From Enterobacteria phage ECP2307: a stretch of 64,000 bases of DNA. Below are positions 51,906 through 52,712 of the stretch, one piece after another. A program made the translations under genes and the position numbers. The DNA lies in sequence record PP461118.1. One strand, given 5' to 3'. Below the pieces are notes generated by a model, which worked only from the letters and a program-made list of their open reading frames with translations, searched no databases and was not told where the DNA came from. Position 1 is the first letter of the stretch; each line of letters opens with the position of its first letter.

Positions 51906-52130
51906 CCGTTGTTTATCATCTTAAGTGCTACCATTACACCAACTCGACATCTGCCGAGTGAAGGAATCGAACCTTCGCCTTTTCTTTACCGGAGAAATAG
52001 ATTGTTTAAGTTTTGCTGTAAACGGTCTTCTGTAAAATTGTTGAGCCAGACCAAGTTTTATAAATTTTTTCAAAATTAAATTGGCTTGAAAATATCATAC
52101 GTACTTGCTGAATTTGGTCTTCTGCTCCTT
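51906..52130. repeat. two adjacent stem-closed elements of the CCAGACC...GGTCTTCTG family
   Basis: CCAGACCGTT (51908)...AACGGTCTTCTG (52033) and CCAGACCAA (52047)...TTGGTCTTCTG (52116); the first contains a T-arm-like hairpin GAAGG-AATCGAA-CCTTC but no matching acceptor stem. Confidence 0.4.
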
Positions 52131-52211
52131 TAAAGAATACTCGTAAGAACTCTTTAAGGGAGGGGCTAAAATAGCCCTCTCAAACATCATTTTGAAATAC
52201 TTATTATAATT

Positions 52212-52289
52212 TGGCGGTTACGAAGGGATTTGAACCCTCATCATCTCCCGTGACAGGGGAGTATTTTAACCAGATTAAACTACATAACC
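52212..52289 (-). tRNA. tRNA-Asp (anticodon GTC)
   Basis: Anticodon stem CTCCC/GGGAG (perfect), loop CUGUCAC; T-loop TTCAAAT. Confidence 0.75.
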
Positions 52290-52295
52290 TTTATT

Positions 52296-52383
52296 TGGTG
52301 TGCCGTGTAGGAGTCGAACCTACCGAGTCTCAATGACAAGAGATTTACAGTCCCCACCGCTACCATCTACGGGATAACGACAC
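52296..52383 (-). tRNA. tRNA-Tyr (anticodon GTA), class II
   Basis: Anticodon loop CUGUAAA; long variable arm; T-arm GTAGG-TTCGACT-CCTAC. Confidence 0.7.
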
Positions 52384-52392
52384 ATTTAAATT

Positions 52393-52469
52393 TGGCGGTT
52401 AGTCAGGGATTCGAACCCTGTGCCATTCGCTTAACAGGCGACCGCACATACCTTATGTGCTTCCTAACC
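52393..52469 (-). tRNA. tRNA-Asn (anticodon GTT)
   Basis: Anticodon loop CUGUUAA; T-loop TTCGAAT. Confidence 0.7.
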
Positions 52470-52476
52470 TTAATAC

Positions 52477-52545
52477 ATTGCCAGACCGTGTTTTTTCTTT
52501 TATCCGCAAAAAGTAGTTTATTGCTGCATACGGTCTTCTGCAAAA
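52477..52545. repeat. stem-closed element of the CCAGACC...GGTCTTCTG family
   Basis: CCAGACCGT (52482..)...ACGGTCTTCTGCAAAATTGG (52530..) forms a 7-bp closing helix AGACCGT/ACGGTCT; sits between tRNA-Asn and the next tRNA. Confidence 0.4.
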
Positions 52546-52546
52546 T

Positions 52547-52623
52547 TGGAGGCGGGTGCAGGAGTCGAACCTGCCGATACCATGCTAATGAGACATGTGA
52601 GACGCCCTTTCTCTATACCCGCA
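52547..52623 (-). tRNA. tRNA with anticodon CAT (Met or lysidine-Ile type)
   Basis: D-arm GAGA-AAGGGCG-TCTC; anticodon stem CATGT/GCATG; loop CUCAUUA; T-arm GCAGG-TTCGACT-CCTGC; position-1 mismatch in the acceptor stem. Confidence 0.55.
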
Positions 52624-52630
52624 ATTCTTA

Positions 52631-52712
52631 ATGACCAGACCAAATCTCTTCTTTGTCCGATTTCGTGTCAGATGAATAAGATTAAGCTTGCTGTAATTGG
52701 TCTTCTGTCAAA
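52631..52712. repeat. stem-closed element of the CCAGACC...GGTCTTCTG family
   Basis: CCAGACCAAAT (52634..)...AATTGGTCTTCTGTCAAAACTGG (52696..); sits between two tRNA genes. Confidence 0.4.

Follow-up and report, generated by a model that had tools for sequence, protein, structure and literature searches.

Particles of Ro60 with Y RNA have been found in animals, in certain bacteria and in a small number of phages, and their roles during infection are unclear. The stretch of DNA considered here (64,000 nucleotides of Enterobacteria phage ECP2307, sequence record PP461118.1; hereafter the window) carries a tRNA region of FelixO1 type (Felixounavirus; 295 phage records match it, the best at 99% identity), in which four stem-closed elements, E1 to E4, lie downstream of a gene predicted to encode a Ro60-fold protein. 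Judged by sequence comparison, E1-E4 are most likely small non-coding "Y RNAs" belonging to a variant of the Ro60/Y RNA system in FelixO1-type phages.

In bacteria, YrlA is encoded within 4 kb of Ro60 on the same strand, has a short conserved motif near its 5' end and contains a tRNA-like domain whose stem-loops follow the order V, T, AS (acceptor-like) and D, and YrlB is a shorter companion without this domain (PMC4201824); proximity to Ro60 was the criterion that Chen et al. applied for YrlA (Chen et al. 2014, RNA 20:1715, PMC4201824). The Ro60 of Thermus phage phiLo binds the adjacent Y RNA-like RNAs Yrl1 and Yrl2 (PMC12135203; PDB 9KOP, 9L5Y). In the literature searched, phage Y RNAs have been described for mycobacteriophages such as ET08, for CcrColossus, for Bacillus phage G and for Thermus phage phiLo (PMC4201824, PMC12135203), and some DUF2828-type phages may be among the 22 phages of Chen et al. 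2014. The gp130 protein of phage Bas63 is reported to resemble Ro60 in structure, to be encoded upstream of a tRNA cluster and to be needed to overcome the Ppl defence, and the same study speculates that "some tRNA genes ... are possibly Y RNAs" (PhageMaP preprint, PMC11482910). This preprint alone was relevant among the literature found on DUF2828 and on Felixounavirus together with Ro60, and for FelixO1-type phages that literature holds only its speculation on Y RNAs.

The corresponding features of the ECP2307 locus, all on the minus strand, are:

51898..52035, minus: E1, long YrlA-like Y RNA candidate (minimum free energy (MFE) fold, T-AS-D structural detector, covariation)
52043..52127, minus: E2, short Y RNA-like element with a 48-nucleotide (nt) loop (pattern, MFE fold, comparison)
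52478..52543, minus: E3, short Y RNA-like element with a 31-nt loop, between tRNA-Met and tRNA-Asn (pattern, MFE fold, comparison)
52632..52710, minus: E4, short Y RNA-like element with a 44-nt loop, between tRNA-Glu and tRNA-Met (pattern, MFE fold, comparison)
52212..52876, minus: flanking tRNA genes Pro, Glu, Met, Asn, Tyr and Asp (ARAGORN and Rfam)
53042..54457, minus: gene for a predicted Ro60-fold protein of 471 amino acids (aa), with a helical repeat ring and a vWA domain (Pfam, AlphaFold2 (AF2), Foldseek, PHROG)

Like YrlA and YrlB, E1-E4 lie within 4 kb of a Ro60-type gene on the same strand, with several copies per locus; their 5' and 3' parts pair into a stem around a large loop (MFE folds and 53 covarying helices), and a short conserved motif adjoins this stem on its 5' side. 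As for YrlA, one RNA per locus (here E1) has the order V, T, acceptor-like, D and carries U8/A14-, G18G19- and T-loop-type nucleotides in its tRNA-like domain; the shorter E2-E4 have no such domain and in this are like YrlB. The locus differs from the YrlA and YrlB systems in that the candidate partner is a DUF2828+DUF7788 protein and not a Pfam TROVE protein, and from YrlA in its motif, which is N-U-W-CAGCAA after a helix of 7-8 base pairs (bp) instead of GNCGAAN0-1G, and in the interleaving of the E1-E4 genes with tRNA genes in one operon; tRNA-processing enzymes therefore probably define the ends of the RNAs. With phiLo it shares a phage-encoded Ro60-fold protein and adjacent Y RNA-like genes of stem-bulge-stem design, and the phiLo Ro60 is the best structural match to the 471-aa protein (16-17% identity in the structural alignment), whereas in phiLo the RNAs lie upstream of the gene and use CGAA as their motif, and neither a tRNA-like shape nor a position among tRNA genes is described for them. 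We take Bas63 to be a Felixounavirus, in which case its gp130 should be the ortholog of the 471-aa protein; in contrast to what was envisaged for Bas63, the RNA candidates here are spacers between annotated tRNAs and not the annotated tRNAs themselves.

The four elements and the adjacent Ro60-fold gene

All 26 tRNA genes that ARAGORN calls in the window lie on the minus strand, so the elements have to be read on that strand. Read in this way, all four share a 5' box, CAGAAGACC-N3-U-N-CAGCAA, and a 3' GGUCUGG, and take the form (tRNA-CCA)-nUUUUn-CAGAAGACC-NNN-U-N-CAGCAA ... loop ... NN-GGUCUGG. The pattern CAGAAGACCNNNTNCAGCAA (15 specified bases) has exactly four matches in the 64 kb, all on the minus strand, and allowing up to three mismatches adds no further match there; shuffled sequences contain a mean of 0.8 matches of this type, and none of 100 shuffles reaches four. 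Unconstrained MFE folds of the minus strand give E1, E2, E3 and E4 an identical closing structure, made up in order of a 3-4-bp outer helix, an AGA/G internal loop, a 7-8-bp inner helix, 2-3 nt and an unpaired CAGCAA, which lies on the 5' side of the loop in all four folds. The parts of this structure, located on the minus strand by pattern search, motif search (GGTCTGG) and MFE folding, are:

E1, minus: CAGAAGACCNNNTNCAGCAA match at 52013-52032; GGTCTGG at 51901; outer helix UUAC/GUAA; 8-bp helix of AGACCGUU (52028..52021) with AACGGUCU (51910..51903); CAGCAA at 52018..52013, preceded by UA
E2, minus: CAGAAGACCNNNTNCAGCAA match at 52105-52124; GGTCTGG at 52046; outer helix GAGC/GCUC; helix of AGACCAA (52120..52114) with UUGGUCU (52054..52048); AUU and CAGCAA (52110..52105)
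E3, minus: CAGAAGACCNNNTNCAGCAA match at 52521-52540; GGTCTGG at 52481; outer helix UUGC/GCAA; helix of AGACCGU (52536..52530) with ACGGUCU (52489..52483); AUG and CAGCAA (52526..52521)
E4, minus: CAGAAGACCNNNTNCAGCAA match at 52688-52707; GGTCTGG at 52635; outer helix UGAC/GUCA; helix of AGACCAA (52703..52697) with UUGGUCU (52643..52637); UUA and CAGCAA (52693..52688)

The exact four-match pattern and the common closing helix bear out a first-pass annotation of this DNA, which had placed four elements here, and its view of their edges needs revision. The terminal TGG that it counted as part of a box is really the encoded CCA of tRNA-Met (52547) and tRNA-Glu (52715), and the elements do not share an AAAA-TGG box, E1 having TTG at this place and E2 being without the AAAA-TGG part. 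It also had three elements abutting tRNA 3' ends, and only two do so: E4 directly follows the 3' end of tRNA-Glu and E3 that of tRNA-Met, each starting 2-4 nt past the CCA and ending 8 nt short of the 5' end of the next tRNA. E1 follows E2, and a structured spacer of about 85 nt separates tRNA-Asp from E2. The overlapping plus-strand open reading frames (ORFs) had been considered spurious, and this holds: the 91-aa ORF over E1/E2 is missing in six of eight relatives and, not being conserved, was rejected as coding. A scan for intrinsic terminators, each a GC-rich hairpin followed by a U tract, yielded nothing terminator-like on the minus strand between 51898 and 52710, and Rfam at gathering threshold reports tRNAs alone in the whole window.

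What the first-pass annotation lacked was the key context, namely the Ro60-fold gene immediately upstream. It is the next gene upstream of the elements, all four of which share its strand, and E4 starts 332 nt past its stop codon. The 471-aa protein matches Pfam DUF2828 and DUF7788; it has no match to Pfam TROVE (PF05731), no family in NCBIfam and no match in PDB by phmmer. The AF2 model, built from 42 homologs (predicted local distance difference test 89, predicted template modelling score 0.88), has the Ro60 architecture of a helical repeat ring followed by a vWA domain that carries a MIDAS (metal-ion-dependent adhesion site); the MIDAS-type motif is D279-V-S281-G-S283, and DVSxS is invariant in the family. 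The 12 best Foldseek matches in PDB are all Ro60 (Thermus phage phiLo, Xenopus, Deinococcus Rsr), with E values from 1.5e-8 to 8e-7 over the full length (~500-555 alignment columns), and isolated vWA domains rank later, only at E > 1e-3. Judging from this predicted structure, we are confident that the gene at 54457..53042 encodes a Ro60 fold. PHROG 850, the family of this protein, is described as "RNA-binding protein", and depositors label mycobacteriophage homologs "Ro-like RNA binding protein". DUF2828/DUF7788 "RNA-binding proteins" occur in at least 709 sequenced phages, with Enterobacteria, Vibrio, Mycobacterium, Listeria, Staphylococcus, Campylobacter and others as hosts. Directly upstream of the Ro60-like gene lies a DUF5681 gene (54539-54910, minus strand), and this pairing is kept in the Ounavirinae-like loci L084-L089.

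Covariation across phages and the tRNA-like module of E1

That the boxes should recur in related genomes, as the first-pass annotation had required, is borne out, the four elements keeping their slots in all Felixounavirus, Mooglevirus and Suspvirus loci. At 48-56% protein identity (loci L009, L087, L088, which is Yersinia phage P778, and L089) the design is the same and the helices are different: in the inter-tRNA spacers the 5' strand of a helix is followed by 1-4 nt and C(A/U)GCAA. Helices of distant relatives include GGACUGU/ACAGUCC, GGAUUC/GAAUCC, AGACUCUGU/ACAGAGUCU, AGACUGC/GCAGUCU, AGAGCAC/GUGCUCU and AGGACAC/GUGUCCU.

The comparison drew on 80 viral-metagenome loci encoding relatives of the protein (39-99% identity). 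Over 94 loci, a detector requiring 7 or more Watson-Crick pairs in the helix, a spacer of 1-4 nt and C(A/U)GCAA found 155 elements on the strand of the protein gene; the opposite strand gave 24, and reversed sequences gave 16 and 20. At least one element is present in 73 of the 94 loci. In a non-redundant set of N7-N3-CAGCAA sites, where a perfect complement 12-175 nt downstream was sought and own complements were compared with borrowed ones, the own complement is present at 86 of 410 sense sites versus none of 298 antisense sites, and with borrowed complements the count among the 410 averages 4.3 and peaks at 11. The helices of these 86 paired sites comprise 53 distinct ones; at 84 sites the base after the 3' strand is G and at 83 spacer position 2 is U, neither being required by the detector, and helix positions 1-3 read A/U-G-R, nearly invariantly. 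In 75 distant loci, elements number 0.31-0.46 per kb in the stretch up to 1 kb from the gene and 0.020 per kb at greater distances, and the gene itself contains none. Loop lengths are bimodal (~35 nt and 85-160 nt), and a T-loop motif occurs in 18 of 29 long loops versus 3 of 57 short loops. Conserved structured RNAs with covarying helices on the tRNA-sense strand are what the first-pass annotation had listed, among other options, as small RNAs. Rfam at gathering threshold reports only tRNAs and one group I intron in 12 divergent loci; a group I intron (RF00028, 71.5 bits) lies at 10696-10922 of L028, a distant phage locus carrying a Ro60-like gene.

Mycobacteriophage GuuelaD encodes a homolog that is 33.6% identical, has DUF2828+DUF7788 and is annotated "Ro-like RNA binding protein". 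Three elements occupy the 376-nt gap after this gene, not interleaved with tRNAs, and are followed by what appears by eye to be a terminator-like hairpin with a U tract:

GuuelaD element 1: GGACGC-UAA-CAGCAA...GCGUCCAG
GuuelaD element 2 (middle): GGACUCC-UA-CAGCAA...(T, D)...GGAGUCCAG
GuuelaD element 3: GGUCAC-UAA-CAGCAA...GUGACCAG

The Rfam model RF02553 partly matches the middle element in its T-to-D-arm region (21.6 bits, gathering score 69), and thus the model is usable and such RNAs score below its threshold. Phages that differ greatly from one another have the same RNA design alongside this protein family.

In the MFE fold the loop of E1 consists of four hairpins in the order V, T, acceptor-like, D:

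51997..51981, minus: V-like hairpin
51976..51960, minus: T arm GAAGG-UUCGAUU-CCUUC
51959..51942, minus: 7-bp acceptor-like hairpin ACUCGGC-AGAU-GUCGAGU (also seen by covariation)
51939..51925, minus: D arm GUGU-AAUGGUA-GCAC, after UG

The acceptor-like stem and the D arm come behind the T arm, which makes the module a circular permutation: the loop of E1 is a tRNA cloverleaf in which a loop closes the acceptor stem and the closing helix replaces the anticodon stem. The first-pass annotation had noticed the T-arm-like hairpin, and its statement that an acceptor stem is missing here does not hold, an acceptor-like one being present. E1 has a partial Rfam tRNA match (22 bits, threshold 29; 51959-52009), and ARAGORN, which looks for a canonical cloverleaf with an anticodon arm, calls no tRNA in any of the four elements. 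The red alga Cyanidioschyzon merolae has circularly permuted tRNA genes, in which likewise the T arm and the acceptor 3' strand precede the acceptor 5' strand and the D arm, with a short linker; unlike these, E1 has no reconstituted anticodon arm and no bulge-helix-bulge splice motif. Its termini form a Y-type helix with CAGCAA, so it is a mimic and not a tRNA precursor.

The module recurs well beyond E1, as a sequence-independent scan for a T arm, a hairpin and a D arm gave 27 matches versus 1 in reversed controls. Among 16 long elements of divergent phages, 13 have a perfect 6-8-bp hairpin right after the T arm, in 12 different sequences; this acceptor-like hairpin is followed by U, UA or UG and then by a GG-containing D arm. 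The acceptor-like stem covaries strongly across phages and persists despite complete sequence replacement in Mordin, L086, L087 and L089, and because it is kept by such compensatory changes, E1 is under selection and not decaying. E1-type modules were parsed by structure for this purpose; a MAFFT alignment of the E1 orthologs broke up their T stem, and the RNAalifold structure based on it, in which the D arm pairs with the region of the invariant CAGCAA, was not used. In L051, L075, L087, L044 and L003 the acceptor-like loop starts with N-CCA (ccaat, ccaacta, cccaat, accatga and gccaaaca) and resembles a tRNA 3' end fused to its 5' end, which suggests that the mimics could be substrates of RNase P or of the CCA enzyme, as for M. 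smegmatis YrlA.

Proposed role and rival explanations

The repeats, the folds, the covariation and the strand- and position-specific co-occurrence with the protein gene are established by these comparisons. We consider it quite probable that E1-E4 are non-coding RNAs of a Y RNA-like kind whose partner is the Ro60-like protein encoded by the phage itself, and that they are co-transcribed with the tRNAs. Two candidate promoters lie between the Ro60-like gene and tRNA-Pro, with sequences conserved in relatives:

53023..52995, minus: sigma70-like promoter TTGACA-17-TAATAT (consensus match)
52932..52903, minus: sigma70-like promoter TTGACA-18-TAAAGT with TG (consensus match)

These predicted promoters are the likely start of a tRNA/Y-RNA transcript; promoter-like sites overall are not above shuffle expectation, the pair at 52903..53023 being a consensus match only. 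A third sigma70-like promoter follows tRNA-Ile (minus strand). From the promoters just downstream of the Ro60-like gene, E1-E4 and the tRNAs would be transcribed together on the minus strand, and tRNA-processing enzymes would release the elements: RNase P would cleave at the 5' end of the following tRNA, and the AU-rich stretch past the preceding CCA would be where RNase E or 3' trimming acts. Given where E3 and E4 start and stop relative to the neighbouring tRNAs, both would be freed as by-products of tRNA maturation, and maturation of the flanking tRNA genes would set their ends. The 5' and 3' parts of each RNA are predicted to form the 7-8-bp helix, A-G-A-C-C-N-N with its complement and then G, with the invariant single-stranded N-U-W-CAGCAA immediately 3' of the 5' strand; helix and CAGCAA may serve as the docking site for the ring-shaped protein, as stem and CGAA do for canonical Ro60. 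The loop would be the variable "effector" part, 31-48 nt long in E2-E4 and a permuted tRNA mimic in E1; if YrlA is a guide, this mimic could attract tRNA-recognising enzymes or serve as a decoy for them. More speculatively, the ribonucleoprotein (RNP) may modulate host RNA decay or an RNA-targeting defence during infection. We give slightly less than even odds to the wider proposal that DUF2828/DUF7788 proteins form a second, phage-centred branch of Ro60 with new RNA partners of its own (a 7-bp helix with CAGCAA, not CGAA), both short and permuted-tRNA ones, often derived from tRNA operons, and acting as an anti-defence RNP (the counter to Ppl in Bas63).

Several observations weigh against a Ro60/Y RNA interpretation of E1-E4. 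Taken singly, the elements have weak folding z-scores (-0.45 to -1.45), and the case therefore depends on comparative evidence, and the link to the Ro60-like protein is itself drawn from co-occurrence in the genomes. A profile search reaches a solved Ro60 (1YVP) only at E = 1; as this is short of significance, the kinship of the protein depends on predicted structure. The canonical GNCGAAN0-1G/CGAA is absent from the 5' module of E1-E4, and neither RF02553 (YrlA) nor Y_RNA matches in 51700-52900 even at E <= 10. An outer helix common to the whole family was rejected (mean run 3.10 versus 3.05 for shuffled partners), and 28 of the 75 distant loci have no strict element. Together with the missing TROVE match, these last four points indicate a distinct variant.

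An alternative that we judge unlikely is that E1-E4 are structured RNAs of the same family whose partner is something other than the Ro60-like protein, acting alone or together with a factor of the host, perhaps by drawing off tRNA-targeting nucleases as decoys or by regulating host enzymes. It gains from the indirect nature of the link to the protein, from a motif that differs from the canonical Ro60 site and from the position of the elements in a tRNA operon with its own predicted promoters. Nevertheless, elements are concentrated about 20-fold within 1 kb of the protein gene, on the same strand only, in phages that otherwise share little.

It is no more probable that the closing helices serve the maturation of the polycistronic tRNA transcript as processing or spacer signals, in the form of nuclease entry sites or insulators, the excised RNA having no further role. 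E3 and E4 do lie exactly between tRNAs, with the AU-rich stretch past the CCA and 8 nt to the next tRNA. However, most tRNA junctions in the same cluster measure just 1-10 nt and need no element, E1 and E2 separate no tRNAs, and elsewhere (e.g. in GuuelaD) elements adjoin the protein gene without tRNA interleaving; the conserved single-stranded CAGCAA and the tRNA-like module would be left unexplained, and helices of 7-8 bp are short for RNase III. The first-pass annotation had offered processing signals as one possibility; as a main role they fit poorly, because the design tracks the Ro60-like gene and not tRNA genes as such.

The same annotation had named tRNA-derived pseudogenes, that is, decayed or rearranged tRNAs without a function of their own that arose by duplication and deletion in the tRNA cluster, and this we regard as very improbable. 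Perfect T and D arms and the partial Rfam match of E1 would suit such an origin, and pseudo-tRNAs are annotated elsewhere in the clusters of relatives. Yet E2-E4 have no tRNA features, the arms of E1 are permuted and sit inside the same helix and CAGCAA module as E2-E4, the acceptor-like stem survives wholesale replacement of its sequence, and the permuted module recurs beside the protein gene in unrelated phages. That the inverted repeats act as DNA, be it as sites for proteins or for recombination or as miniature mobile elements, is scarcely credible: the terminal inverted repeats CCAGACC/GGTCTGG recall the ends of miniature inverted-repeat transposable elements and relatives have HNH endonuclease genes inserted in this cluster, but the elements occupy the same slots in every Felix-, Moogle- and Susp-type locus, no target-site duplications flank the repeats, CAGCAA shows strict strand asymmetry (86 sense versus 0 antisense), G.U pairs occur in the E1 stems on the sense strand only, and the helix sequence is free to vary with pairing kept.

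As Y RNA-like partners of the Ro60-like protein, E1-E4 would provide concrete candidates (with coordinates, structure and recognition motif) for the RNA side of a protein that, in a knockout screen, a FelixO1-type phage needed against a bacterial defence system, and the function of phage Ro60-like proteins would thereby become directly testable. They would also represent an RNA design that accompanies the DUF2828/DUF7788 family and is missed by current Rfam and Pfam models, and would explain several "hypothetical ORFs" and unexplained spacers in those FelixO1-group phages that are widely used in therapy and typing.

Other features of the tRNA cluster

Between E1 and tRNA-Lys(ttt), at 51752-51900 on the minus strand, lies a separate RNA of ~150 nt whose fold is very stable (-48.3 kcal/mol, z = -5.85) and which has no Rfam match. 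Its closing stem of ~23 bp shows compensatory double changes at 9 pairs in three lineages, and its 3' hairpin, CAGAC-CUUAAGCAA-GUCUG, covaries (CAGUC/GACUG, AAACC/GGUUU) and resembles a minimal module of helix, UUA and (C)AGCAA. With this RNA the Ro60-like protein could have a fifth partner.

Two hairpins are conserved in the spacer between tRNA-Asp and E2 (52128-52211, minus strand): GAGGGCU-AUUUU-AGCCCCUC, which covaries in L084/L085 (GGACU/AGUCC), and CUUUAAAGA...UCUUUAAAG. A conserved spacer of ~95 nt in the gap between tRNA-Thr and tRNA-Val (50109-50203, minus strand), found in the same slot in L085 and L086, is closed by AGGUC...GACCU and contains an internal CUGAAGACCGCAACAAA; it bears a faint likeness to the Y-like 5' box and was not detected under the strict element criteria. 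In the gap before tRNA-Ser(tga), at ~50970-51060 on the minus strand, a tRNA-like sequence without an ARAGORN call shows by eye an acceptor stem GUGGGAC/GUCCCAU followed by G and CCA, a T arm and a 9-nt anticodon-type loop with CCA. It may be an unusual tRNA-Trp, Trp being absent among the 26 called tRNAs.

The tRNA clusters of relatives also carry protein-coding insertions. HNH/endonuclease genes are annotated within the cluster in some, and others (FelixO1, which is L002, L009 and L084) have Cys-X2-Cys-rich ORFs between tRNA genes that are absent from the window. In FelixO1 these ORFs lie ~1481-1976 nt downstream of the stop codon of the Ro60-like protein gene. Being present in some relatives and not in the window, such ORFs represent a presence/absence polymorphism inside the tRNA cluster.

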